A DNA stretch of 64,000 nucleotides, taken from the IMG/VR virus record IMGVR_UViG_3300005518_000003, positions 14,564 to 78,563 of that record; one strand, written 5' to 3'. Position 1 is the stretch's first letter. Each line of letters starts with the position of its first letter. Positions 1 through 49,541 of the stretch are shown piece by piece. Under the pieces are notes generated by a model, which did no database searches, was not told where the DNA came from, and saw only the letters and a program-made list of their open reading frames with translations. This DNA is from a virus. The position numbers and the translations under genes are program-made.

Positions 1-687
1 GAACGCGATTCGGCACGGTCCCTGAAGACGAATGTCGAGTGCGTTCCAGTCGTGCGCATCGTCCCAGCGCGTTTTGAGATCGTAGAACGTATCGAGCTCA
101 CCCGTTACGCCCTCACCTGGTGGTTTTCCTCCGAGCGGAGGCGTGTACGCCGTGAGCTGCACGTAAAACGGCGTTGGTGTCGCAACGGTATTGAAGAGCA
201 ATCCAGGTCCAGCGGAATCGCGGAACGCGAGGTTCTGCTGATTTCCGCCGGTAAGCGGATCCATCCTTTGCTCTTGAAGTGGCGGACGACCATACGGTTC
301 GTTCTTCCCCATTAGGCGCATGTGCCACGAGATATTTCCGTCCGGCAGCTTGAAATTCGGCGTTGTTACCCACTGCTCGACGACGCGCGGTCCCGCAGGA
401 GGTCCTGTCACGTCGAGCCTGGTACCGAGCGACCAGCCCATGCGAAATCCGCGAAGCCAAACGTTGCACGCTTCCGGAAAATTCGCCGTGCAGAGCAAAA
501 AGAGGAAACGGTTCGTCGGACCGTGGGTGACGAGCGCAGGCACACGAAGGCCAATCGATGACGTTCCGCCGTACGGATCGCCAGCGAGACCCTGCAATGC
601 TTCGTCGATGCCGGTCGAGACGAGCTCGACTCGGCGTCTTGGAATCACCAGGCTTGGATATCGTCGGAGGTGAGCGACTGCGCCCAT
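1..687 (-). CDS. Putative virion structural protein, partial (runs off the left edge; absent from the ORF track)
   Basis: ATG at 687 with GGAGG upstream, overlapping the stop of 696..1364. The frame stays open to base 1: MGAVAHLRRYPSLVIPRRRVELVSTGIDEALQGLAGDPYGG... Confidence 0.7.
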   Translation of the reverse strand, partial: MGAVAHLRRYPSLVIPRRRVELVSTGIDEALQGLAGDPYGGTSSIGLRVPALVTHGPTNRFLFLLCTANFPEACNVWLRGFRMGWSLGTRLDVTGPPAGPRVVEQWVTTPNFKLPDGNISWHMRLMGKNEPYGRPPLQEQRMDPLTGGNQQNLAFRDSAGPGLLFNTVATPTPFYVQLTAYTPPLGGKPPGEGVTGELDTFYDLKTRWDDAHDWNALDIRLQGPCRIAF

Positions 688-695
688 TCAGCCTC

Positions 696-1364
696 CTACG
701 ACTTGCACGCCGTGATGTAGCAGTCCGGAATCTGGATTCCGCACATATCACGAAGTCGAAGCAGCGCTTCGCGATCCGTGATGTTGACGCCGTCGAACTT
801 GTCCGTGTCGGGCGTAAGCGTTTTGAACGTCATCACGACCGTGATTGGGAAGTCCGGGAGCTGGACACGCGCGAGAAAATCGACCTGGAGCTGCTGTTGG
901 TACGTCATCACCCAGATGCCGTTTGGAAATCCGGGTCCTGGCGTTCCGGCGGCTTTCGCGAGCGTCGAGAGTGGCGTGAACTTCGATGCGATCGACGGCC
1001 GCGGCATGCCGACGACGTTGATCTTCGCTTCGATGCCGCTTTGGAGCGAAAAGAAGAAGTCGCTCTGCGGTTGAAGCACGTTCTGCGGCGTGCGGTCGCG
1101 TGTGATCGTGTACTCGATCTCCTCGATGATCGTGTCCGCGACGATCTTCACGTCGCTTCCGACTTCCGGATTCAGATTGCGATCCGGGTTGTCGAACGTC
1201 GTACGGACGTTGATGTAGTAGGGCACGAACGGAATGCCCTGCGCGCGCGCGAGTGCGAGTCGCGGATACCCGAGTGAGAGAAATCGGTAGATGTCCCTCA
1301 GCCAGTGATCGATCCCGCATGCCCCGGCGCAGTCGCCGAATCCCTTCTTGAGCTCGTCATTCAT
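696..1364 (-). CDS. Putative structural protein (minor capsid-like, beta-rich)
   Basis: 222 aa with alternating hydrophobic strands, directly downstream of the capsid candidate. N-terminal KKGFG and Cys-rich termini. Function inferred from position. Confidence 0.5.
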   Translation of the reverse strand: MNDELKKGFGDCAGACGIDHWLRDIYRFLSLGYPRLALARAQGIPFVPYYINVRTTFDNPDRNLNPEVGSDVKIVADTIIEEIEYTITRDRTPQNVLQPQSDFFFSLQSGIEAKINVVGMPRPSIASKFTPLSTLAKAAGTPGPGFPNGIWVMTYQQQLQVDFLARVQLPDFPITVVMTFKTLTPDTDKFDGVNITDREALLRLRDMCGIQIPDCYITACKS

Positions 1365-1375
1365 GGGGTCTCTCG

Positions 1376-1416
1376 ACGCCTCAGCCCCTCGGCCTTTCGG
1401 CGTCGGGGCTTGGCGT
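1376..1416 (-). promoter_or_regulatory. Structured RNA element, copy 1 (3' of capsid candidate)
   Basis: ACGCC-A-AGCCCC-GAC-GCC-GAAA-GGC-CGA-GGGGCU-GA-GGCGU. Matches copy 2 with compensatory changes. An extra GCGGC-GAAA-GCCGC hairpin lies at 1422-1439. Confidence 0.75.
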
Positions 1417-1444
1417 AGCTAGCGCGGCTTTCGCCGCGTCAGCG

Positions 1445-2827
1445 TTAGATGTTGACGAAGCCGCACTCGCACTCCGAGCAGAGTGCATCGCGCGCGTCCG
1501 CGTTGTTGCGGAGGAACGTCATGAGGTCGCCGTCGAGCTCGCGGCCCTTGACGAGCATCGAGAGCTTGAGGTCGCCCATCTTGTAGAAGGCGCGCTCCGC
1601 GAAGACCGCCTGCGAGTAGTTGACGATCGCCGCGGGCGGCACGTCGAGCGATTGCTCGAGCATGACCGGCGAGCCGCTGACCGTTCCGCCGAAGTTGATG
1701 TTCGTCGCGTCGACGATGAACGGAGGAATCACGCCGTTGCCCTGACGGCCCTGCGTGACCGAGAGGTAGTCGCGCATGATGTCGCCCTGGGTGTCGTCGA
1801 CCTGCTGGAGGACGAGACCGATCGGGATGCCTGCGCCGATGATGTACGGCAAATCGAGCTTTCGGAACTCGCTGTTGCCGCGGAGCATGTGACGGAGGTC
1901 CATGCCGCCGTAGGTGACGGGCGCGAGCTCGAACGCGCGCGACGGACGGAATTCACCGACCGGTACGCCGCCGACCGTGAGCACGCCCTCGCGGATGAAG
2001 TCGATCTTGAGGAAGTCGAACGCCGTTCCGAGCGAGTCGTAGTAGTCGTTCGTGCGACGAATCTCGGCGAGAACTGCGTCCTCGCTGAGACCCGACGAGC
2101 CGTCCTGAGCGTTCGGCGGCATGTACGCCGTGTGACGGAGGATTTCGTCGAGGATGTTCCACTTCGTGCCGATCGCCCAGCGGAGATCGTACGCGCGCAC
2201 GAGGTGCCACGCGACGTAGTTGGCCCACGCACCCCACTGAAGGATGGCAGGACGCATGAACTGCGTCGGCGTCTGACCGTCGAAATTGTCACCGAGGGCT
2301 CCGTTCACGATGTCGGCGACGGTGAAGACATCGGGGCTCGGCGGCTTCGCTTGGCCGACGACCGGGTGCGTCCACGCGTTGCCGAGAATCGACCACGACT
2401 TCGGCTCGGGTTCGAGGTGAAATCCGATCGCGCACGCGAGCATGTGGGTGTTGAGCTCGCCGTTCTGCGGCATCGTCGATTCGACGAATGCCACACCTTC
2501 GACGCTCTTCGAATTTCCGAAGAGATCGATCTCGCTCGAGAAGTTCTTCTCGATCGCCTGGTCGGTGATCGGGCCGACGAGCGTCCAGCGCGTTTGATGG
2601 ATCGTGTCCATCGCGTAGGACGCGCAGTCCATCGAGCTCTTGAGGAGGTTCGTGACGCCAACCGCGCCAAGACCCTTCTTCACGCCGCCTTCGTAAGAGC
2701 GGACCTTCTCGATGCTGATCGGCTCGCCAAGGCCGACTTTCTTGATCTCGATCTCCCGCTTGATTTGGCGGAACTTCGGGCGGAACGGGTGTTTCGGAGT
2801 CGACGGTTTGGCAAGTGCGGTGTCCAT
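1445..2827 (-). CDS. Candidate major capsid protein (non-HK97, possibly jelly-roll)
   Basis: 460 aa, strong GAGGAGA RBS, strongly biased codon use, beta-rich, flanked by paired RNA elements. Basic N-terminal arm with two GLG sites. Fold not verified. Confidence 0.45.
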   Translation of the reverse strand: MDTALAKPSTPKHPFRPKFRQIKREIEIKKVGLGEPISIEKVRSYEGGVKKGLGAVGVTNLLKSSMDCASYAMDTIHQTRWTLVGPITDQAIEKNFSSEIDLFGNSKSVEGVAFVESTMPQNGELNTHMLACAIGFHLEPEPKSWSILGNAWTHPVVGQAKPPSPDVFTVADIVNGALGDNFDGQTPTQFMRPAILQWGAWANYVAWHLVRAYDLRWAIGTKWNILDEILRHTAYMPPNAQDGSSGLSEDAVLAEIRRTNDYYDSLGTAFDFLKIDFIREGVLTVGGVPVGEFRPSRAFELAPVTYGGMDLRHMLRGNSEFRKLDLPYIIGAGIPIGLVLQQVDDTQGDIMRDYLSVTQGRQGNGVIPPFIVDATNINFGGTVSGSPVMLEQSLDVPPAAIVNYSQAVFAERAFYKMGDLKLSMLVKGRELDGDLMTFLRNNADARDALCSECECGFVNI

Positions 2828-2890
2828 GCTGTTCTCCTCTGCTCTCGTGGTTGCCGCAGCCGGGTCACGAGGTGCAGTTTGGTTTTTTCA

Positions 2891-2932
2891 ATGCCTCAGC
2901 CCCTCGGGCTTGCGCCGTTGGGGCTCTGGCAC
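2891..2932 (-). promoter_or_regulatory. Structured RNA element, copy 2 (5' of capsid candidate)
   Basis: GUGCC-AG-AGCCCC-AAC-GGC-GCAA-GCC-CGA-GGGGCU-GA-GGCAU, GNRA loop, covaries with copy 1. Confidence 0.75.
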
Positions 2933-2947
2933 GCTATGTCGAAGCGG

Positions 2948-4684
2948 TTACTCGGCCGCTTCGTCGTTGCGACGGTGTCTCGACGTTCCGGGGAACCGGA
3001 GCGAGGAGTTGTCCTCTTCCACCACGAGTCCGAGACCGCGCGCCGCGCTGTCGAGAACCTGCGGATGGAATTGTCCGAGCGTCGCGAAGCTGCCGCGATG
3101 CTTGGCGATGAGCTGATCGGCGTACTTGCGCTGATCCGGTGTCGCATGTCCTGCCGCATGCGCAGCGAGCACTTCGCGATTCTTTCGAAGCGCGACGTAG
3201 GCTTCTCCGTGCGAGCGTAGGACGTCCGTTGCTCCCGAAACGTCGCCGAGTCCACGGACTCCCACCGGAGCGTACGCGGAAACCGGAGGGCTTTGTGGCG
3301 TCGTCGGAACCATGATGCCCGGAGGCATTTGTTCCGGCGGAACTTGTGGCTGACGCGAAATCGCCGGAGGCGGCACGAATCCGCCTGGCGGGGTGTACGG
3401 GCCTTGATTCACGACGGGCGGATATCCTCCGCCCGGTGGAATCGTCGGATGCGGACCGCCTTGTGGAAGTTGCATTTGCGGCATCACGCTCGGCCCGGTT
3501 GAAGGACCGGACGGAATCATGCTGCGACATCCGCAAGAACCGCCGAGGCCAGGGTACTGACCGCAGGTCGAGCACGGGGCTCCGGCGAGACCGACCGCCG
3601 TGCGCTGTCCGATTTCTCCCGAGAAAAGCTTCTTCCCGGTCGAGTCGGATGCGCTGTCCTTGAAGAGGTACGCCGCGAGATCGTCGACGGCTTTTCCGAC
3701 GAGACGAACGGCTGCGCCGAATCCGAAGAACTGAAGCGCGCTGCGCCCCATCGGCGATCGAATGAACTGCGCGACGACGAGCGGTGTTCCGGCCACGGCG
3801 ACGCCCGCACCAACGCGCGGAAGGAAGTCGTCCATGAGCGGAGCTTCGATGAAGCGCATCGCGAGCGCTTGACCTTTGTCGTCCTTGCGTTCTCGCATCG
3901 TCACGAGACGATCGATCACGTCGGCAGCGGTGTAACCGATGGCGCCCGTGACGAGGCCGACGACGAGCTCCCAGCCAGTGACCGGGTTCTCCATCGCTCC
4001 GCGACGGGAGTGACGACGGCGACGGAGACGCTCACCCGTGATGTGTCCGACGAGGCGCGTGCGGTAGCGCTTGCCGTGCGACTTGCCTCCGCGGCGACGT
4101 GTGAAACGTCCGCGACGGGTGCGACGCACCTGGCGCGGGAACTCGCGCGCACGCGCGCGACGACGACGACCACCTCGACGGCGACGGCGGCGGCGCGGAG
4201 CTTCGGCTGCACGCGCGTAGCGGCGGCGACGGCGGCGGCGCGGAGCTTCTCGAGAACGACGTGCGCGACCTCGACGACGGCGACGGCGGCGCGGAGCTTC
4301 CTCACGCGATTGACGACGACGACGACGACCACCCTTGCGACGTTTGCGGGCCATGTGCACGGTCTCCTTGGAATGAGAACGGCGTCTCGCCCGCACGCGA
4401 GATCGTTTTCTTCGCTTGAGTGAACCGCGACGGCGGCGCTTCGTCAAGCCCTCTTCTTTCGCATGACGACGGCGACGGCGTTTGCCGGCACGACGCTTTG
4501 CAGCTTTCCCGCCGAAACCAGCCTTGATCTGCGCAGGAGTCAGCCTGCGTCGTTTTCCTCTTCGCGCCATCTTTCTGCCTCGTTTTCGTGGGGTGTCTGC
4601 ATGAAGGACCACCGCCCGCCTCGAAGCAGCCTGCTCTGGCTCGGAACGCGCTCGCGAGAGAATCTCTCGATAGTCGACGGGCAT
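2948..4684 (-). CDS. Arg-rich (protamine-like) core/membrane polyprotein
   Basis: About 200 aa of poly-Arg tracts, then MENP, hydrophobic helices, a Cys cluster and a Pro/Gln-rich region with GLG sites. The start may be MARRGK at 4570. Confidence 0.7.
   Translation of the reverse strand: MPVDYREILSRARSEPEQAASRRAVVLHADTPRKRGRKMARRGKRRRLTPAQIKAGFGGKAAKRRAGKRRRRRHAKEEGLTKRRRRGSLKRRKRSRVRARRRSHSKETVHMARKRRKGGRRRRRQSREEAPRRRRRRRGRARRSREAPRRRRRRRYARAAEAPRRRRRRRGGRRRRARAREFPRQVRRTRRGRFTRRRGGKSHGKRYRTRLVGHITGERLRRRRHSRRGAMENPVTGWELVVGLVTGAIGYTAADVIDRLVTMRERKDDKGQALAMRFIEAPLMDDFLPRVGAGVAVAGTPLVVAQFIRSPMGRSALQFFGFGAAVRLVGKAVDDLAAYLFKDSASDSTGKKLFSGEIGQRTAVGLAGAPCSTCGQYPGLGGSCGCRSMIPSGPSTGPSVMPQMQLPQGGPHPTIPPGGGYPPVVNQGPYTPPGGFVPPPAISRQPQVPPEQMPPGIMVPTTPQSPPVSAYAPVGVRGLGDVSGATDVLRSHGEAYVALRKNREVLAAHAAGHATPDQRKYADQLIAKHRGSFATLGQFHPQVLDSAARGLGLVVEEDNSSLRFPGTSRHRRNDEAAE
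4180..4300 (-). repeat. Three tandem coding repeats, EAPRRRRRRR
   Basis: GGCGGCGCGGAGCTTC recurs three times on the + strand. Confidence 0.75.
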
Positions 4685-4759
4685 GACGGTGTTCCCACGT
4701 CACCCGCACGTAACGCTTGGGAGAAGTCTACGCGCAGATCGAGAGATTACGCAACAAGG

Positions 4760-5275
4760 TCACGGAACCACGATTCCGCGGTCATCGACGATGCATCCGT
4801 CCGGCAGCTCGATCCGATAGAACTGCTCCGAGGTCTTTCGACGCCAAAAGGAATAGAGCACCGCGGGTTTCTTGAACGCTCGGCTCTTGAATGGATAGAG
4901 AAGAAGCTGCGTGAGATTCTTCGCCTTGTTGAATTTATGGTGAAAGAACCCCGGATGCTTTGTGCCTGCTCGGTCGTAGTAGATCTCGTTGATCTCTCCG
5001 AGCTTGTGCCACGTGGAAATATTTTCTGGCGGAAGATCGATTCCGCCTTCGAACACGGTTGCGCTGCGACCAAAATAATCTGAACCTTCGTCGCTCTCTG
5101 TCTTTCCACGATCGAACTCACCGATCAGCAAGCTGCACGTGGGCCAGTCTTCACCACTCTCGTCGTAGAGCATCGCCGCGTCGCGAGCCGGCTTGACCCT
5201 CTTACTCCCGCTACCGAGACCGATTCCCGGAGCGCGTAGGTTGATCTCGATCTTGCGTCCCATGCAGATCAGCAT
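4760..5275 (-). CDS. Hypothetical virion-module protein
   Basis: 171 aa, co-oriented in the operon, GIGLGS near the N-terminus. Confidence 0.65.
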   Translation of the reverse strand: MLICMGRKIEINLRAPGIGLGSGSKRVKPARDAAMLYDESGEDWPTCSLLIGEFDRGKTESDEGSDYFGRSATVFEGGIDLPPENISTWHKLGEINEIYYDRAGTKHPGFFHHKFNKAKNLTQLLLYPFKSRAFKKPAVLYSFWRRKTSEQFYRIELPDGCIVDDRGIVVP

Positions 5276-5281
5276 GGAGCC

Positions 5282-6118
5282 TCACTTCGCTCGACGACTC
5301 GCCCACCAAGCTTTGATGTCGTCTTTGTACACAAAGCCGAGAACACCCGCGGTGACGACTGTTCCGCCAAGCATCCACCAACCCCACGGGAACTCCGGCC
5401 CGGCCTTTGGCGTAGTGCATCCGCCAGCCACGAACTTCTGCGCTTCGAGAAGATCGTCGCGCGCCTTCAAATCTTCCTTCGACCAGGGCGCGTTCGGATT
5501 CTGGATGTGATAGTCGACGATTTTGTTGTAGTCCGCATGCAATCGAATGAGCTCGCGATCACATTCGATCTTCGAAAGAATGTCGTCGATGACGAGCGAC
5601 GCGAAGTAGATCAAAGCGATGGCGATCGCTGTAACCGCAAGCATCTGCGCGATGACGGCAACGATCATCACGGGGATGAGCACCTCGATGTTTCCCGTCG
5701 AGTTGTTTTTCATCTGCGTGGCGTCAGCCGGCGTTGGCGTTTTGATTCCGCGTCGCTTCGCAATAATCTGAAGCGTACGAGCCAGCGTATCTGTCGGATT
5801 GTCCGAGCCGCCAGCGCTGATATTTTTGTCGTTCGCGAGCTTCGCGTTGATCGCACTCGAGACCATGAGCGTGATGAAGTCTTGCTTCGAAGGGTTGTCG
5901 TTCGCGATCCACTTTTTGGCGGTGGCTCTTGCATTCGCGGAGGCGAACGCCTGATCCCACGAGCGGCCCTGTACTTGTGCCCAAAACTGTTTGATGAGTA
6001 CGTACGGATTGAGCGAAAACGCAGGAAGTTTGAGCGCTGCGGTGACGTCGTCGATGGGTGCGCCAAGGCCCACGATGCGAAGTGCTTTCTGAAAATCTTC
6101 GTAGCGTACGAGGGTCAT
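5282..6118 (-). CDS. Membrane protein (internal and C-terminal TM segments)
   Basis: Long hydrophobic stretch plus C-terminal WGWWMLGGTVVTAGVLGFVY; GLGAP near the N-terminus. Confidence 0.7.
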   Translation of the reverse strand: MTLVRYEDFQKALRIVGLGAPIDDVTAALKLPAFSLNPYVLIKQFWAQVQGRSWDQAFASANARATAKKWIANDNPSKQDFITLMVSSAINAKLANDKNISAGGSDNPTDTLARTLQIIAKRRGIKTPTPADATQMKNNSTGNIEVLIPVMIVAVIAQMLAVTAIAIALIYFASLVIDDILSKIECDRELIRLHADYNKIVDYHIQNPNAPWSKEDLKARDDLLEAQKFVAGGCTTPKAGPEFPWGWWMLGGTVVTAGVLGFVYKDDIKAWWASRRAK

Positions 6119-11182: not shown

Positions 11183-12358
11183 TTACGCGACGAGAGGTGT
11201 CGCACTCGTGACCGGCGTGATCGCGATCTGCTGAATCGTTCCCTGAAGGAACTGAAAAAACGCTTCTGCTTGCGCTTGCGTATTTCCAGTAACGGGCGGA
11301 AAGAATTCCTCGAACTGAGGTGTGATCGTGAACGTCGTTCCCGGAAAGTAGCCTTCGCCTTCGGCGATCGTGTCGATGCGACCGAGACCCATCCGTGCAT
11401 GCGCTGTTGCACCGGTTCCTGGAGCGACGCCCGTGTCGCGAATGAGAATCGATGGAACGGTGACGTAGTTGTCACCAGGATCGGTGACCGTAATGGCCGT
11501 GATGGGAAATCCAGGGCCAGCCCCAACCGTGACGACACCTTGCGCAGGAAGACCTTCGGCCATGACGGCGAAGAGTTTCGCAGGACGGCGAGGAGCGATT
11601 CCGGTCGTCGTCGTAATGAAGACATCCGGCACCGATTCGTAGACGCGACCCATATCGACGATCGTGATCGACTGAACGCGACCTCGGGCGTCGAGCTGAA
11701 GAATTCCCTGCGCAGGAATCGGTGGCGAATTTCCTTCCGGACCGCCACCCTGAATGTTGAGGATCGCTGTTGCCGGGTCATATCCCTCGCCTGGATCCGC
11801 GATGTTGATGTAGCGAACCGCTCCGCCACGTCCACCCTTACGCGTGTCGAAGTTGAAGCCCGCAGGCGGAAGGCCTCCAAGCCACGTGATCCTCGTCGTC
11901 GAGGCCGTGTATCCGGCCCCTCCGGTGTCGAGCGCAGTTTCGTACGCAGCCATGTACGCCCTGAAGAGCGCATCACGTTGGGTCGGTCTCCTCGGAACGA
12001 CGTTTCCGTTCACGATGGGAGCGAGCGGTTCGCGCTGGTTGTTGTTCGCCCGAATGATCGGCGGAAGAATGAAATCACGACCGCGATTCGCAACGTCCAC
12101 GGTTACCTGCTGGATGCGACTTGTGTTCGTGATCGTCGGCGGGTTCAAGAGCGCGGCGACTGAAGGCTCAAAGCCGAGCACGATCGTACGCACGATTGGA
12201 TTCACGGCAGGGATCGTGATGGAGTCCGAAATGATCCGCAGGCCGAGCGCCTGAAGAATGTCTGGCGGGATGGGGGCGCTCGCAATGAACGGCTGAATCT
12301 TGGTCGAGCTGATCCCGAGCGCCTGGACCGTGTAAACGAGCGTGACCTGGGTACCCAT
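11183..12358 (-). CDS. Beta-repeat virion surface/spike-like protein
   Basis: Repeats of I/V-x-I/V-x-D-x-G-x-G-Y...P-x-V-x-I, typical of phage structural beta modules. Confidence 0.55.
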   Translation of the reverse strand: MGTQVTLVYTVQALGISSTKIQPFIASAPIPPDILQALGLRIISDSITIPAVNPIVRTIVLGFEPSVAALLNPPTITNTSRIQQVTVDVANRGRDFILPPIIRANNNQREPLAPIVNGNVVPRRPTQRDALFRAYMAAYETALDTGGAGYTASTTRITWLGGLPPAGFNFDTRKGGRGGAVRYINIADPGEGYDPATAILNIQGGGPEGNSPPIPAQGILQLDARGRVQSITIVDMGRVYESVPDVFITTTTGIAPRRPAKLFAVMAEGLPAQGVVTVGAGPGFPITAITVTDPGDNYVTVPSILIRDTGVAPGTGATAHARMGLGRIDTIAEGEGYFPGTTFTITPQFEEFFPPVTGNTQAQAEAFFQFLQGTIQQIAITPVTSATPLVA

Positions 12359-12864: not shown

Positions 12865-14814
12865 CTACCGGGAACGCACCTTGTGAAGCTTTTTGTCGGC
12901 GAACGAATAGAACTCGCCTTCGCCCATCACCACGTGGTCGATGAACGCGATTCCAGAGGCTTTGCAAGCATTTTTCATTGCTTTGGTCAGGTCGGCATCG
13001 GCATCCGAAAAATCCGCTCCGCCGCTCGGATGGTTGTGCAGGATCGCAAGCCCTTTCGCGCCGCGATCGATGGCCGGCTTGAGGACGTCAGCAGGATCGA
13101 CGGCAACGCGATCGCGCTGACCTACGTGAACGATGGCGACCCCGCGGAGGTCGGAATGGATATCGAGCAGGATCGCGCAGAGGTGCTCCTTGTCCTGCTT
13201 CGAAGCCCACGGATGCATCATGTTGTAGATGTCGCGTGAATTCTTGATCGGACCGATTTGTTGCGCGACCTCGCGAATCTCTCGAAAGTCATCCGCGTTG
13301 CGCTCGACCTTCACGAACGGAATTCCATCCGTCACCTCAACGGGATTCTCACCCACGTGTTTTGCATGTGGCCAGTGCTGTCGCGCGCTTGCTCGTACTT
13401 GATCTTCAGATTCACCACGAATGATGTTGATCGAGTACCCGTGACGATCACGCGCAACCGCTTCCCACTCTTGGCGGACTTCGTCGTACGCGATCTCTAC
13501 GGTCACGACCTTTCGCTCGCGTCCCTCGGCCGCCCCGCCACATCCGTGCTCGCAGCCGCATTCGTTCGCTTCACGCGAGATGCCACCAGGAACACCTCGT
13601 TGCGGATCCAACTTAGACAAAGCCTCGGCATTGCTCGGGAGCTTCCTCACCCGCTTACCAGTGTTTGGCCAGTGATAGAGCCCCTTCTTGTAAAAGAGCT
13701 CGCGCTCGGTGTAGCTGCCGTCATCCCGCGGCGTGTACGTCCGAACGACCCATTTCTTTTTGTCGTCCCAATACTTCACGAAGTGCGTCGCTGAGAACAT
13801 TCCACGATGAGCTTCATGGCGAAGCGCATCGTCGATGTTGTTGAAGTCGCGCGCTTCACGTGGCCCGCTCTCTGGAGGAAGTAGTGGAGGAGTCTCCGGT
13901 CCCGAGTGGAGAATGAGATGCTCCGATTTCATCTTGCCTTTAGAGCCGTCGCGCCAGAGAACGGTGATCTTTTCGCCTTCGACGGAGATCACGACGCCGG
14001 GATTGAGTTTCTTTGCAAGCCTTGGAAGAACGCCAGGCGCAAGCTGCACGTCGTCACCGCGTTGGAAATCGCGCGCCTGGACTGGGTTCTCGCGGAGCAA
14101 CCGATCGACGCCCGACTTCGCCTGTCGCAACGCCTCACCACGTGTGGTCGCACCCCAATGACCTCCACGAACGATGGCCGACCACCACGTGGTTCCGTCG
14201 TCCATGAGATATTTTTCGAGTCGAATGTTCTCGCCGTGGTAGTCGACCGTCTCGCGTTGTTGGATTCGATCGCGCGCCTCGACGGGGTTCTCGCGAACAA
14301 ACGAGACGCTCGGACGCACCGCAGGCTGCGAATTCGCAAAAGCTTCTGCTTCGCCTTTCGTCTTGAACGGGCCGTGATACTCGCTGCTCCGATCACTTGG
14401 TCTGCGGCCGTATGCGTACCAGACCGTGCTCCCGTCTTTCGGACGCTCTGATGGATGCATCTGATCACTCGAAACGATTCGCCAAGGAATCGGTTGCCTC
14501 CATGCCGGCTGAGGACCGCGACGAGGATTCTCTCGCGCACCCGGACGTCGGATCAGTCCAATGTGCACCGCGTAGTCGTACGCGCTCTCGTGCATCTTTC
14601 GTGGATTGAGGAAGCCGTCTTGAATCGCTTCGCCGACTTGATCATCCCACCACTCAATGATGGTCGCGTCGTTCTTCGCGTTGATCAGCTCGACGTGTGC
14701 TCGGTCACGCTCCTCCCAGGTCGAGAGCCGCGTGTCACTGAGAGACAATTCGGGCACGGAATGACGTCCACGGCGACGGGCTTCTTCGGCGGCGGCGGGA
14801 TTCATTCGAGGCAT
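12865..14814 (-). CDS. Multi-domain (polyvalent) protein with C-terminal RadC/JAB domain
   Basis: C-terminal E...HNHPSG...SDAD...DHVV JAB motif; small domains separated by RENP/GENP linkers. Confidence 0.85.
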   Translation of the reverse strand: MPRMNPAAAEEARRRGRHSVPELSLSDTRLSTWEERDRAHVELINAKNDATIIEWWDDQVGEAIQDGFLNPRKMHESAYDYAVHIGLIRRPGARENPRRGPQPAWRQPIPWRIVSSDQMHPSERPKDGSTVWYAYGRRPSDRSSEYHGPFKTKGEAEAFANSQPAVRPSVSFVRENPVEARDRIQQRETVDYHGENIRLEKYLMDDGTTWWSAIVRGGHWGATTRGEALRQAKSGVDRLLRENPVQARDFQRGDDVQLAPGVLPRLAKKLNPGVVISVEGEKITVLWRDGSKGKMKSEHLILHSGPETPPLLPPESGPREARDFNNIDDALRHEAHRGMFSATHFVKYWDDKKKWVVRTYTPRDDGSYTERELFYKKGLYHWPNTGKRVRKLPSNAEALSKLDPQRGVPGGISREANECGCEHGCGGAAEGRERKVVTVEIAYDEVRQEWEAVARDRHGYSINIIRGESEDQVRASARQHWPHAKHVGENPVEVTDGIPFVKVERNADDFREIREVAQQIGPIKNSRDIYNMMHPWASKQDKEHLCAILLDIHSDLRGVAIVHVGQRDRVAVDPADVLKPAIDRGAKGLAILHNHPSGGADFSDADADLTKAMKNACKASGIAFIDHVVMGEGEFYSFADKKLHKVRSR

Positions 14815-18493: not shown

Positions 18494-20275
18494 TCATGCG
18501 TCCTCCGCAAGCATCTCTGCCATCTTCACGCGCTCGCGAGACGTCTCTTCGGCGAGCTCGCGTCGTGTGAGCCTCTGGATGTACGCATTGCGCGAAGACG
18601 TTGCCCAGCGCTCTTCCTCCAGCGCTTCCCCAATCTCTTCGCGCGTCATGTCCTTTGGATACGCGTCAGCGAGAACGCGAAGACACTTTGCTTCGGGTCC
18701 TGGAAGCTTGCGAAGCCAGTGTTCGAGCAGCGCTACGCCGGTCGGAAGCTCTTCGTAGTCATCGCCAAGCCATTCGACGCCCTCCAGAGTGATGCGGTGG
18801 CGATCTCCGACCTCCTCAAAGATGCCGGCATTCCGACCGCGCTGGAAATACGCGTTGCGTGTGCTTCCCTTCGCCCCGGTGATTTGTGTGATCTGCGAGC
18901 GCGTCACTCCGCTTTCTCCGAACTGCGCGACCGCAGCCACGAACGACCGCGGAACTTTCACTTCTCCTTCAACCTTCGACGCATCCCCATTCGACTGAGG
19001 TCTCGACGCAACCCTCTTCTTTTCTTTTGGTACGACGACGATCGCCGGAACAACGATCTTTCCGACAGCGAGATGTTGCATCTGCTGGCGAAGTCGCTTG
19101 AGCTCATCGAGCGCTGACTGCGCCATACCCTCGGCTCGGAGCGTTTTCTCTTTCGCATCTTCGGTTGCTTTGCGCGACGAACCCAAAGCTTCAACCAACG
19201 CGTCGACCTGCTTCTCGAGTTTCTTTTCTTGTCGCTTCGTAAGAACCGGTACCTCGATACGCTTTGGGATACGCGCGGGAGATGGATCGGGTTGAAGCTT
19301 CTTGAATTTTCCCGCTGCCTCGAGCTCCTTTTTGAGTCGCATGACTTCTGCCTTCAATGCTTTCGGATCGTTCGCTTTCGCTTGTTCTACGGTCGCCGCC
19401 ATCTGCGCAGAGAGCGCACCAAGATCGACGTCAGCAAGTGTCTTGGGAGGCTTGACCTTCTTCCCATCCGGCGTCCGACTGGAGTCGAACGTCTTTCGTT
19501 CACGGAATGAAACGCATTCGAGCATCCCGTTCATGAGACCTGGCGCCCAAAACCAACCCGTGCCGCGTTCGAGCGACGAAAGCGTTCCTAGCACTTGCTT
19601 TTGCTCTTCTTTGGTCCCGTTGTGTTCGATCCAGTCCCCGAATGCGTTGATGTCCTGCGGTCCCGTGAGGCGAAACGCGATCAAGATCTCGATTTGTGTG
19701 AGCACGTCTTTCGCGATGCGTGCAGGACGCTGCGAAATGAGCGTCACACCGATGCCGCGCGTACGACCACGCAGAACGAAATCGTTGATCGCCCCAACGA
19801 GCGGAAGCATGTCCGCAGAATCGACGCGCTGCGGGACGAAGAGATCGCACTCATCGATGACGATGTGAAGAGGCTCTCGTTGCTTGTTCTTGAGGAGGTA
19901 GAGCTTATCGGCGAAGTCGCGAACGAACCGGCGCATCGCGCTCTTCGAGAAGTCGGAGAGATCGAGCACACACGAGAGACGATTTTCGACGACGTACTCG
20001 GCGAGGACGGTACCTCCACGCTCCTCGAGTGGCATATCCGCATGGAGACCCCCGAAGATCGGAATCGGATAGCCGCCTTCCTTTTTTCCATTGCTCCCCG
20101 CACGAAGCCCCCAGGCTCCGCCTGTCGGATCGATGACAATGGTCTGCACCTTTGCGTCGAGTAGCTCCTCGACGAGGAGCATCCCGGTGTGGGTCTTACC
20201 CGAACCGCGCTTACCGATGATTCCGATGGTCTCGGTTGCGATGTTCGGGATCTTGAGCTTGGGGGCGAGACGCAC
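18494..20275 (-). CDS. HerA/FtsK-superfamily ATPase (DUF87-like) with coiled coil and C-terminal HTH-like region
   Basis: Walker A GKRGSGKT, Walker B IVIDE, RGRTRGIG, SQRPA...KDVLTQ. Confidence 0.85.
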   Translation of the reverse strand: MRLAPKLKIPNIATETIGIIGKRGSGKTHTGMLLVEELLDAKVQTIVIDPTGGAWGLRAGSNGKKEGGYPIPIFGGLHADMPLEERGGTVLAEYVVENRLSCVLDLSDFSKSAMRRFVRDFADKLYLLKNKQREPLHIVIDECDLFVPQRVDSADMLPLVGAINDFVLRGRTRGIGVTLISQRPARIAKDVLTQIEILIAFRLTGPQDINAFGDWIEHNGTKEEQKQVLGTLSSLERGTGWFWAPGLMNGMLECVSFRERKTFDSSRTPDGKKVKPPKTLADVDLGALSAQMAATVEQAKANDPKALKAEVMRLKKELEAAGKFKKLQPDPSPARIPKRIEVPVLTKRQEKKLEKQVDALVEALGSSRKATEDAKEKTLRAEGMAQSALDELKRLRQQMQHLAVGKIVVPAIVVVPKEKKRVASRPQSNGDASKVEGEVKVPRSFVAAVAQFGESGVTRSQITQITGAKGSTRNAYFQRGRNAGIFEEVGDRHRITLEGVEWLGDDYEELPTGVALLEHWLRKLPGPEAKCLRVLADAYPKDMTREEIGEALEEERWATSSRNAYIQRLTRRELAEETSRERVKMAEMLAEDA

Positions 20276-46645: not shown

Positions 46646-47089
46646 CTAGATGGGTGCGATTCGGCGAATGGAAACCACCTGGAGGTCGATGGGGTTTCCT
46701 GCAATCGGGTTTGTGACGCTGAAATCGACGTTGGTCCCATTGATCGCGGGAGCATTGACGGTCGGAGGATTCGCAAGTCCAGGCTGAATGACTTGGAATT
46801 CATTCTGCGTCGCGATGAACGGGGTATTGAGATTCACCTCCGAACGAAGCGTGGTGTACATGTTTCGTTCGAGAGTGTGATCGCGGAACATGAACGTCGT
46901 TTCGAGGAGGACCGGGTTCGTTGTCACCGGCACCGACAACACGATGACGGGCGCGCCGCTGTCGGGCACCGTCAGTACCGCAGAGAAAGGCGTACCGAAA
47001 GAGAGAAGCTGCGTAAGCGCTGACGATGCGGATGTGAGGGCGCGCCTAATCAGCTTTTCAAGCCGTTCGACACGACCGAGGAGTTTCAT
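46646..47089 (-). CDS. Spike/fibre-like paralogue 3
   Basis: N-terminal RVERLEKLIRRALTSAS, beta-rich body. Confidence 0.6.
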   Translation of the reverse strand: MKLLGRVERLEKLIRRALTSASSALTQLLSFGTPFSAVLTVPDSGAPVIVLSVPVTTNPVLLETTFMFRDHTLERNMYTTLRSEVNLNTPFIATQNEFQVIQPGLANPPTVNAPAINGTNVDFSVTNPIAGNPIDLQVVSIRRIAPI

Positions 47090-49028: not shown

Positions 49029-49541
49029 TTAGATCACTTCTTCGAGGAGAAGCGCTGCGCCATCGATGCCGGCGCCGGCCACACCGCCGAGCGTAACGGC
49101 ATCGTCCCCTGCGGTCGTCTGCCAGTGCACCGAGATCACCGTGCCGGCCGGAGCTCCTGAATCGAACTCGAACACGGTGCTCGCACCGTCGACGACTCCT
49201 GCGGTCGCAACCGGAGCCCACGAATACACCGTGGTGAAAGCACCCGCGCCGACCTTCACCTGAAGGAACGCGTTGACGCCGCCTGCACCGCCGCCTCCCA
49301 CGCCGGAGTAGCTCGCATTGATGAGGATTTTTCCGGTCGGCCCTTTCGTCGTGATCGATGCGTCCGGGGTGATTGTGGTGCCCGCAGCGACGACCACACC
49401 GGAGAGCGCGACTTGCTGTACGCGGTTTCCGAGGATCGCGAGCTGAGCGAGCGCAGCGCTTGCGCTGGCGAGGGCGCGCTTGATCAGTTTTTCGAGACGT
49501 TCGACGCGAGAGGTAGGACGACCTGCGGGAATGAATGTCAT
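49029..49541 (-). CDS. Spike/fibre-like paralogue 1
   Basis: MTFIPAGRPTSRVERLEKLIKRALASAS leader, beta-sandwich-like body. Confidence 0.6.
   Translation of the reverse strand: MTFIPAGRPTSRVERLEKLIKRALASASAALAQLAILGNRVQQVALSGVVVAAGTTITPDASITTKGPTGKILINASYSGVGGGGAGGVNAFLQVKVGAGAFTTVYSWAPVATAGVVDGASTVFEFDSGAPAGTVISVHWQTTAGDDAVTLGGVAGAGIDGAALLLEEVI

Follow-up and report, generated by a model that had tools for sequence, protein, structure and literature searches.

A candidate covarying structured RNA at the junction of two putative capsid genes of an uncultivated virus

The locus and the two elements

Two short and closely related hairpins flank a likely capsid gene of an uncultivated virus and are the subject of this analysis. 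The stretch of DNA that was analysed, called the window throughout, comprises 64,000 nucleotides (nt) and corresponds to bases 14,564–78,563 of the IMG/VR virus record IMGVR_UViG_3300005518_000003, a sequence of 78,563 bp that has direct terminal repeats and is rated complete. The G+C content of the window is 58% and the genes of its first 15 kb are carried on the minus strand. Here, the two elements bracket the open reading frame (ORF) at 1445–2827 on the minus strand, which encodes a protein of 460 amino acids (aa). The arrangement, read along that strand, is the following:

2948–4684, minus strand: gene of a 578-aa, Arg-rich protein; homologues precede the capsid-candidate gene in the relatives L043 and L046
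2891–2932, minus strand: upstream copy of the element, a three-tier hairpin, GUGCC / AG / AGCCCC / AAC / GGC-GCAA-GCC / CGA / GGGGCU / GA / GGCAU
1445–2827, minus strand: gene of the 460-aa, beta-rich capsid candidate, with a strong GGAG Shine-Dalgarno sequence
1376–1416, minus strand: downstream copy of the element, a three-tier hairpin, ACGCC / A / AGCCCC / GAC / GCC-GAAA-GGC / CGA / GGGGCU / GA / GGCGU
696–1364, minus strand: gene of a 222-aa protein modelled as a single jelly-roll sandwich; it adjoins the 460-aa gene in all relatives examined

The upstream copy is separated from the stop codon of the 578-aa gene by 15 nt and from the ATG of the 460-aa gene by 63 nt. For the downstream copy, the distances are 28 nt to the stop codon of the 460-aa gene and 11 nt to the start codon (ATG) of the 222-aa gene. 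Both share one layout, which consists of a 5-bp outer stem, a purine loop of 1–2 nt, an AGCCCC/GGGGCU stem, a 3x3 internal loop RAC/CGA, a 3-bp inner stem and a GNRA loop. An earlier sequence-only reading of this stretch had described the shared stem, the RAC/CGA loop and a GA-containing loop, and all of these are present on the minus strand in both elements. The swap of the inner stem (GGC-GCAA-GCC versus GCC-GAAA-GGC), the change of the outer stem and the two GNRA loops on the coding strand (GCAA and GAAA) were likewise read correctly, and the covariation extends to seven copies, as described below. The element is about 41 nt long, with about 15 nt of conserved flank on either side. Its helix contains 14 canonical pairs and approximately five non-canonical layers with stacked G·A/A·G mismatches, i.e., about 19 layers under a GNRA cap.

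RNAfold returns exactly this three-tier hairpin for both copies, with −26.1 kcal/mol (z = −4.6) for the upstream and −26.7 kcal/mol (z = −5.2) for the downstream copy, and in neither case did any of 200 shuffled sequences fold as well. As a direct repeat, the two copies extend over 45 nt with 80% identity and a spacing of 1515 nt. The pattern GCCCC-N11-19-GGGGC occurs in the window at these two sites only, compared to an expectation of 0.29. In the complete genome of 78,563 bp, two copies and no more come up, both by pattern and with a covariance model built from the seven copies; the model scores the upstream copy with 69.9 bits and the downstream copy with 61 bits. Since the folding energy alone is not distinctive (89 minus-strand segments of 46 nt reach −21 kcal/mol or better), the weight of the case rests on the paralogy of the two copies and on their conservation in other genomes.

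No U-run is found 3' of either element in the window, where the 3' flanks are UUGAAAAAACC and CGAGAGACCCC, and a U-tract is absent after all seven copies, each of which was inspected. A scan for sigma-70 promoters as well as a terminator scan gave nothing at either element of the window. This bears out the earlier statement that these hairpins lack a U-tail, from which that reading had concluded that they are not ordinary terminators.

Covariation and strand specificity

Loci around homologues of the 460-aa gene were gathered from viral, metagenome and genome collections. The motif family obtained from them comprises seven copies from five genomes, namely two each from the window and L043 and one each from L046, L009 and L010, the last being a variant. 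The identity of the capsid candidate to that of the window ranges from 41 to 69% across the motif-bearing genomes.

The inner stem differs in all seven copies and always pairs (GCC/GGC, GGC/GCC, GAC/GUC, GGA/UCC, GGUC/GACC, GGCG/CGCC and GGCC/GGCU), and the outer stem is different in every copy as well. In the model-based alignment, 93.4% of the cells are paired and changes on both sides are seen in four pairs (six cells); the few unpaired cells arise because the variable purine loop causes register shifts of one column in the outer stem. The covariation score is 0.275, compared to 0.138 in shuffled alignments (0 of 500 reach the observed value) and at most 0.092 in slid registers, for a sample of seven sequences, which is too small for a formal test such as R-scape.

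The strand can be told as well. Four G·U pairs are present on the coding strand, one in the upstream copy of the window, one in the upstream copy of L043 and two in L010, and all of these would turn into A·C on the opposite strand. Four copies have GAAA as their loop and the others GCAA, CGAG and UUCAC, so that five of the seven are GNRA on the coding strand only. The confinement of G·U pairs and GNRA loops to the coding strand suggests that the element acts as RNA. The compensatory changes seen on one strand, at homologous positions in different genomes, fit a structured cis-acting mRNA element in general. Taken together, the comparison of these sequences supports the element as a genuine, covarying and strand-specific structured RNA candidate.

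Relatives carrying the element

The closest loci obtained are L009 and L010 (67–69% protein identity), and in both the element lies 3' of the homologue of the 460-aa gene. In the L009 copy the inner stem reads GGCG-CGAG-CGCC and the outer stem UGCCC/GGGCA. The L010 variant has a U-A instead of a C-G pair in the middle stem, and its 3x3 loop is changed to a G-C and a G·U pair with a 1x1 C/C mismatch. A scan of viral contigs for the core, performed blind to context, brought up 13 contigs, two of which (L043 and L046) encode a capsid homologue. L043 is a complete genome of 77,874 bp (44% protein identity) that carries both copies at the same two positions, and L046 (41% identity) carries the downstream copy only. 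These searches, along the lines of the check proposed with the sequence-only reading, place the same element beside the homologous gene in four other uncultivated viruses.

The core AGCCCC-RAC...CGA-GGGGCU does not vary in six of the seven copies. When the window is aligned with L043 (blastn), no nucleotide stretch is better conserved than the upstream element, with 91% identity over 47 nt; the coding DNA of the two aligns only in patches of 68–73%. Whole-genome searches with the covariance model, in which the window genome is G000 and the genomes compared with it are G006–G010, found two copies in G000, two in G006 and one in G007, and none in three motif-less relatives. Applied to 353 kb of related loci, the model found nothing further except look-alikes that had been selected by pattern. 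In a protein tree, the motif bearers fall into two well-supported clades, (window,(L009,L010)) and (L043,L046); since the relation between these clades is left unresolved by the tree, a single origin of the element is neither shown nor excluded. Most of the motif-less relatives still have a strong hairpin 3' of the capsid-candidate gene, some with U-runs (L047, L033).

Core hits outside the virus family (L034–L042, L044, L045) occur at about the number expected by chance, and no capsid homologue was found in the five of these records that were searched whole. One look-alike hairpin is located in L034 and L045 (11729–11756 and 11090–11117, respectively, both on the minus strand) and has the same AGCCCC-RAC...CGA-GGGGCU core, followed by UUUUUAUU. 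Another one, in L036 (602–630, plus strand), has the same core and reaches 36 bits with the model. These look-alikes in unrelated contigs are probably chance or convergent matches.

The search of genome collections gave only two short contigs of metagenome-assembled genomes (MAGs), titled Chloroflexota and Polyangiaceae. DNA contigs of four other metagenomes, among them wetland and rhizosphere relatives, align to both elements, as judged by alignment extent only.

The gene junction and the upstream copy

The position of the downstream copy is constant. It is found at the junction of the 460-aa and 222-aa genes in all five motif-bearing genomes, and the spacing from the helix to the downstream ATG is 11 nt in the window and 13, 12, 12, and 14 nt in the others. 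The distance from the stop codon of the capsid candidate to the helix is variable (19 to 76 nt). A Shine-Dalgarno sequence of the GAAGG or GAGAG type follows directly after the helix at the downstream junctions. Two further features belong to the surroundings of the copies in the window:

1365–1375, minus strand: leader of the 222-aa gene, in which a weak GAGAG resembling a Shine-Dalgarno sequence lies immediately 3' of the hairpin
2872–2890, minus strand: A-rich 3' flank of the upstream copy, starting with UUGAAAAAACC and nearly identical in the upstream copy of L043

The upstream copy is present in two of the five genomes, the window and L043. In both it lies 15–16 nt after the preceding stop codon and 63–65 nt before the ATG of the capsid candidate, and both share the AAC as well as the 3' flank UUGAAAA-R-ACC. 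This flank resembles the UUGAAGG..ACC-AUG leader found 3' of the downstream copies, and the 5' flank of the upstream copy of the window is also present at the downstream copies of L009 and L043. Since the flanks are shared with downstream junctions, the upstream copy appears to be a duplicate of the entire downstream junction. On this sequence evidence, it would have arisen through duplication of the whole junction in front of the capsid-candidate gene and would have been kept in two lineages; the segment 2872–2890 looks like a vestigial leader carried along by this duplication. The earlier claim that the copies bracket the capsid gene therefore holds for the window and for L043, but the constant feature is the junction of the 460-aa and 222-aa genes (five of five genomes, compared to two of five for the upstream copy). 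By this comparison, the bracket is real in the window genome, yet secondary to the junction between two putative jelly-roll genes.

In a rhizosphere contig (run X7; compared over 1200–3100 of the window), the start of the 222-aa gene is followed by sequence that aligns to 2886–2925 of the window and then by the 3' end of the capsid candidate. The downstream element of this relative is nearer to the upstream than to the downstream copy of the window, a hint that sequence may have been exchanged or converted between these two sites.

Comparison with known RNA families and systems

Rfam 15 gave no match at the gathering score on positions 1–6000 of the window (E ≤ 10). The sole overlap was with the COG2908 RNA, at 22.8 bits compared to a gathering score of 58.7 and on the opposite strand. 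At E ≤ 1, nothing was found on five related loci, including the copies in L043, L046, L009, and L010. The proposal of a candidate new RNA motif has thus withstood the database comparison, for the window and for the related loci. The element family is small but well conserved and is, by its sequences, a candidate new family for RNA databases.

Several known systems share some of the features. Intrinsic terminators likewise have a G+C-rich stem and a stable tetraloop 3' of a gene; here, however, none of the seven copies has the 3' U-run, and the stem keeps its sequence, an unusual trait for a terminator. The RNase III hairpins of phage T7, of the R1.1 type, are alike in being irregular, internal-looped, intercistronic within phage mRNA and without a U-tail. 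In T7 the processed hairpin stays at the 3' end of the upstream segment, which it stabilises, and several related copies are present per genome. Sites of the T7 type comprise roughly two turns of largely double-stranded RNA, in many cases with an internal loop. In contrast to the approximately 60 nt of T7, the element has about 19 layers in 41 nt, which is at the low end for known RNase III substrates; its internal loop is a symmetric 3x3 G·A/A·G/C·C loop, its helix is capped by GNRA and it shows no sequence similarity to the T7 sites. The likeness would be one of function.

The intercistronic stabilisers of Rhodobacter puf and the repetitive extragenic palindromic (REP) sequences of E. coli malEFG are also stable stem-loops at a cistron boundary, through which genes side by side in one operon reach different mRNA levels. 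The 5'-terminal stabilising stem-loops of ompA and papA (in the reference list of PMC3997798) belong to the same likeness. All of these are generic hairpins or high-copy repeats, whereas here two copies with an invariant core and a fixed spacing to the start codon are seen. The many copies of REP or BIME repeats also contrast with the exactly two copies in this 78.5-kb genome. The idea of a repeat of the host was rejected for the sample of 301 genomes from the phylum of the MAG that contains L048 (titled Polyangiaceae), in which nine core hits stood against eight for the reversed control; none of the core hits in these 301 genomes had a self-complementary spacer.

The nut sites of phage lambda (boxA plus boxB) resemble the element in the two copies per genome, the small hairpin with a GNRA-like loop and, in some copies, a linear box on the 5' side. 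BoxB, however, consists of a stem of 5 bp under a pentaloop, without internal loops, and the copies described here are not promoter-proximal. Domain V of group II introns was rejected. AGC and a GNRA loop are present, but a symmetric 3x3 loop takes the place of the 2-nt bulge, no intron family of Rfam was hit and the copies lie in short spacers between intact ORFs. A kink-turn was rejected too, as it needs a 3-nt bulge together with GA/GA and the loops here are symmetric 3x3 and 1–2 nt in size. Also rejected on anatomy were a CRISPR repeat and a long-range pairing of one copy with the other.

Proposed function and alternative explanations

By analogy with such systems, we consider the element to be a cistron-boundary hairpin for processing, stability and insulation, which would uncouple the expression of the neighbouring capsid-candidate genes, and assign a probability of roughly 0.5 to this reading. 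The element would sit within the minus-strand mRNA of the structural genes and would be transcribed through. Its stable, continuously stacked irregular helix could block 3'-5' exonucleases, be cut by an RNase specific for double strands, or both. The capsid segment and the downstream segment of the mRNA would then gain hairpin-protected ends and half-lives of their own, and the weakly initiated downstream cistron would be insulated from ribosomes and polymerases that leave a heavily expressed capsid cistron. The outcome would be unequal expression of adjacent capsid genes that are needed in very different amounts. Because the best, though weak, structural matches of both flanking genes are viral capsid proteins, such an unequal demand is plausible. 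T7 RNase III sites and the intercistronic hairpins of Rhodobacter puf work as stabilisers of mRNA segments. The presence of copies in five genomes, their covariation, strand and conservation, the fixed spacing and the hairpins in motif-less relatives support the boundary hairpin. A stabilising effect of terminal stem-loops on segments of bacterial mRNA is established (Emory, Bouvet and Belasco, 1992; Bricker and Belasco, 1999; both as given in the reference list of PMC3997798).

Several observations weigh against this reading. The upstream copy is absent from L009 and L046 (the contig of L010 ends short of that region), and since it is missing in other motif-bearing genomes a two-sided bracket is evidently not required. 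Compared to classical RNase III substrates, the helix is short. In several genomes a separate simple hairpin lies between the capsid stop codon and the element and might itself be a 3' stabiliser. In the window it is the following feature:

1418–1443, minus strand: separate simple hairpin with a GCGGC-GAAA-GCCGC core, between the stop codon of the 460-aa gene and the downstream copy

The same place is taken by a simple hairpin in L009 (about 2038–2049, UUCG loop) and in L043 (about 11690–11725, GCGA loop, then UCUUUUC), and the latter looks like a conventional terminator. Moreover, no gene of an RNase or of an RNA-binding protein was recognised among the ORFs scanned (24 with Pfam, 14 with PHROGs), and a search of sequencing runs listed no RNA run as containing the virus. 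Finally, an invariant core of 19 nt in six of seven copies, together with a conserved unpaired 3' flank, exceeds what a generic barrier or insulator needs and favours a specific partner.

This last point leads to the main rival, a sequence-specific RNA operator, which we regard as possible, if on the doubtful side. Here, a viral or host protein would bind the core and the flank and repress or activate the gene 11–14 nt downstream and, via the upstream copy, also the capsid gene, for example in an autoregulation by a capsid or assembly protein. The core is kept in six of seven copies, between genomes whose capsid proteins share 41–45% identity, the 91% identity of the upstream copy between the window and L043 includes the unpaired flank, and the distance to the Shine-Dalgarno sequence and the ATG is constant. 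Furthermore, a loop of tandem G·A plus C·C and a GNRA cap are typical surfaces for protein or tertiary contacts. L010, however, retains the element with the 3x3 loop turned into pairs, which suits a recognition of shape rather than of specific bases, and none of the ORFs scanned has a recognised RNA-binding domain. A few ORFs are unique to the motif-bearing genomes, and these belong to no Pfam family; in this small sample their sharing may also simply follow phylogeny. A still bolder version, in which the element is the operator of a dedicated viral RNA-binding protein, possibly a jelly-roll capsid protein, in a new virus lineage, seems rather improbable to us. If it were true, the proportion of major to minor capsid protein in large (65–80 kb), tailless and probably membrane-containing soil viruses would depend on this protein, and the system would represent the counterpart, in a double-stranded DNA virus, of the autoregulation by coat protein and operator known from RNA phages.

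A factor-independent terminator or attenuator that manages without a U-tract and lowers read-through into the capsid gene and into the next gene is unlikely. The G+C-rich, GNRA-capped stem-loop directly 3' of a gene would fit, as would the strong hairpins after the homologous gene in most relatives, U-runs included in L047 and L033, and the UUUUUAUU that follows the same core in the unrelated contigs L034 and L045. Against this stand the lack of a U-tract in all seven copies, the terminator scan that is silent at both sites and the invariance of a stem sequence that terminators do not normally keep. In L043, in addition, the hairpin with the UCUUUUC tail lies ahead of the element, between the capsid stop codon and the element, which makes the latter redundant as a terminator. 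We give little credit to a role at the DNA level, in which the copies serve as recombination linkers for the exchange of a capsid cassette or as sites or cruciforms for a dimeric DNA-binding protein. The gene content is indeed mosaic (G006 shares the packaging-type ATPase at 61%, G007 the replication genes), the repeats flank one gene in direct orientation and the core is an inverted repeat. Nevertheless, spacer and outer arms vary while staying complementary, for which a duplex operator or a linker has no need, and the G·U pairs and GNRA loops are seen on the coding strand only. Three of the five genomes have one copy only (with the contig of L010 short of the upstream region), and what is conserved is the structural core and not the long identical tract that a recent exchange would leave.

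An antitermination site of the nut type, where the linear box CGCUUCGACAU and the GNRA-capped hairpin would load a read-through factor onto RNA polymerase, is highly improbable. It would be in line with two copies per genome that are oriented along transcription, and with the 11-nt box shared 5' of the upstream copy of the window and the downstream copies of L043 and L009; the four other copies, however, lack the box. Both copies lie 1.5 kb apart inside one co-oriented gene block and not just past promoters, and the ORFs scanned contain no recognised N-, Q- or Nus-like gene; an N-like antiterminator was looked for in 24 ORFs with Pfam, 14 of them also with PHROGs, a search that small Arg-rich proteins would escape. 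That the resemblance is mere chance, or a neutral leftover of duplication without function, can be practically dismissed. Stable hairpins are common in a G+C-rich genome and the loose pattern alone gives two hits in four of 100 shuffles, but both copies are kept with compensatory changes in a genome whose capsid candidate is 44% identical.

As judged from sequence, the element is an undescribed mRNA signal at a gene boundary, whose role we infer, with the boundary hairpin as the preferred reading. Cis-acting intercistronic hairpins of phage mRNA are a familiar kind of element, and this one by itself opens no long-standing question. The element bears on the scarcely described signals for gene expression in uncultivated, tailless prokaryotic viruses with jelly-roll capsids. 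It lies precisely at the meeting point of two capsid genes whose products are presumably required in very different copy numbers. With its 41 nt and the natural compensatory variants that are already available, it represents a compact handle on the tuning of the ratio of structural proteins.

Neighbouring genes and the capsid assignment

Searches of Pfam and PHROGs gave no family for the 460-, 222- or 578-aa proteins, and no sequence match was found in the PDB or, by tblastn, in GenBank phages. At least 168 homologues of the 460-aa protein were found in metagenomes, many of them on contigs of 65–80 kb. The closest relatives, P0002–P0008, show 70–89% identity. Its AlphaFold2 model is beta-rich with a pLDDT of 82.8. 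Foldseek found no match for it at E ≤ 0.001 in the PDB or BFVD, and the matches by VIA-align are weak. Several of these are jelly-roll capsid proteins of viruses with an internal membrane, namely those of HCIV-1 (Z 4.2, root-mean-square deviation 4.5, 133 residues aligned), SPV1 (Z 4.0), and PRD1 P3 (Z 3.5). The model of the 222-aa protein is a single beta-sandwich (pLDDT 83.3), and its best matches are viral capsid proteins, i.e., those of EhV-201 (Z 7.1), HHIV-2 (Z 6.5), and SPV1 (Z 6.4); all of these Z values fall below the level of trust advised for the tool. The 460-aa gene is likely a capsid gene, and the 222-aa protein is possibly a penton or a second capsid protein. In the 578-aa gene, tandem DNA repeats of 45–51 nt at 4158–4349 encode the Arg-rich tract of the protein.

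A further hairpin is present in the leader of the capsid candidate:

2844–2871, minus strand: leader hairpin of the 460-aa gene, CUCGUG .. CCG-GCUG-CGG .. CACGAG, 16 nt before the ATG

Most relatives (L003–L058, within 60 nt before the ATG) have a hairpin ahead of the capsid-candidate gene, of which the one at 2844–2871 is the positional equivalent in the window. Its parts in the relatives are an outer stem that varies, a purine-rich bulge, an apical GCC/CCC stem and a loop of the UNAG type. The outer stems vary among the loci, with pairing kept as judged by eye. For 26 leaders, the mean folding z-score is −0.66 (p = 0.004), and RNAalifold found no consensus for the leader region of the 26 loci, owing to register shifts. 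This hairpin may be a second leader motif that is common to the whole family.

The virus and its genome

A search of the window with ARAGORN gave neither a tRNA nor a tmRNA. An ATPase of the HerA/FtsK type is encoded at 18494–20275 on the minus strand (Pfam DUF87; PHROG 2666, which is annotated as terminase large subunit), and no HK97-type capsid, portal or tail proteins were recognised among the 24 ORFs scanned. This combination is consistent with a tailless virus that packages its DNA in the FtsK/HerA manner.

The gene content of the six genomes G000 and G006–G010 is mosaic, and the structural module is common to all of them. G006 alone has the packaging-type ATPase of the window (61% identity). 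G007 alone shares the helicase (58%) and the gene block at 21.6–33.3 kb of the window, within which an AAA_24 ATPase (63%) and a PD-(D/E)XK nuclease (52%) match. The primase-helicase has its best match in G007 as well (41%), with weak ones in G006, G008, and G010.

Inside the structural gene block, a 649-aa ORF at 12865–14814 on the minus strand carries a RadC-like JAB domain at its C-terminus (Pfam E = 2e-28). In the other half of the genome, a direct repeat of 69 nt and 74% identity, whose copies are 2434 nt apart, is located at 47007–47075 and 49441–49509 of the window on the plus strand.

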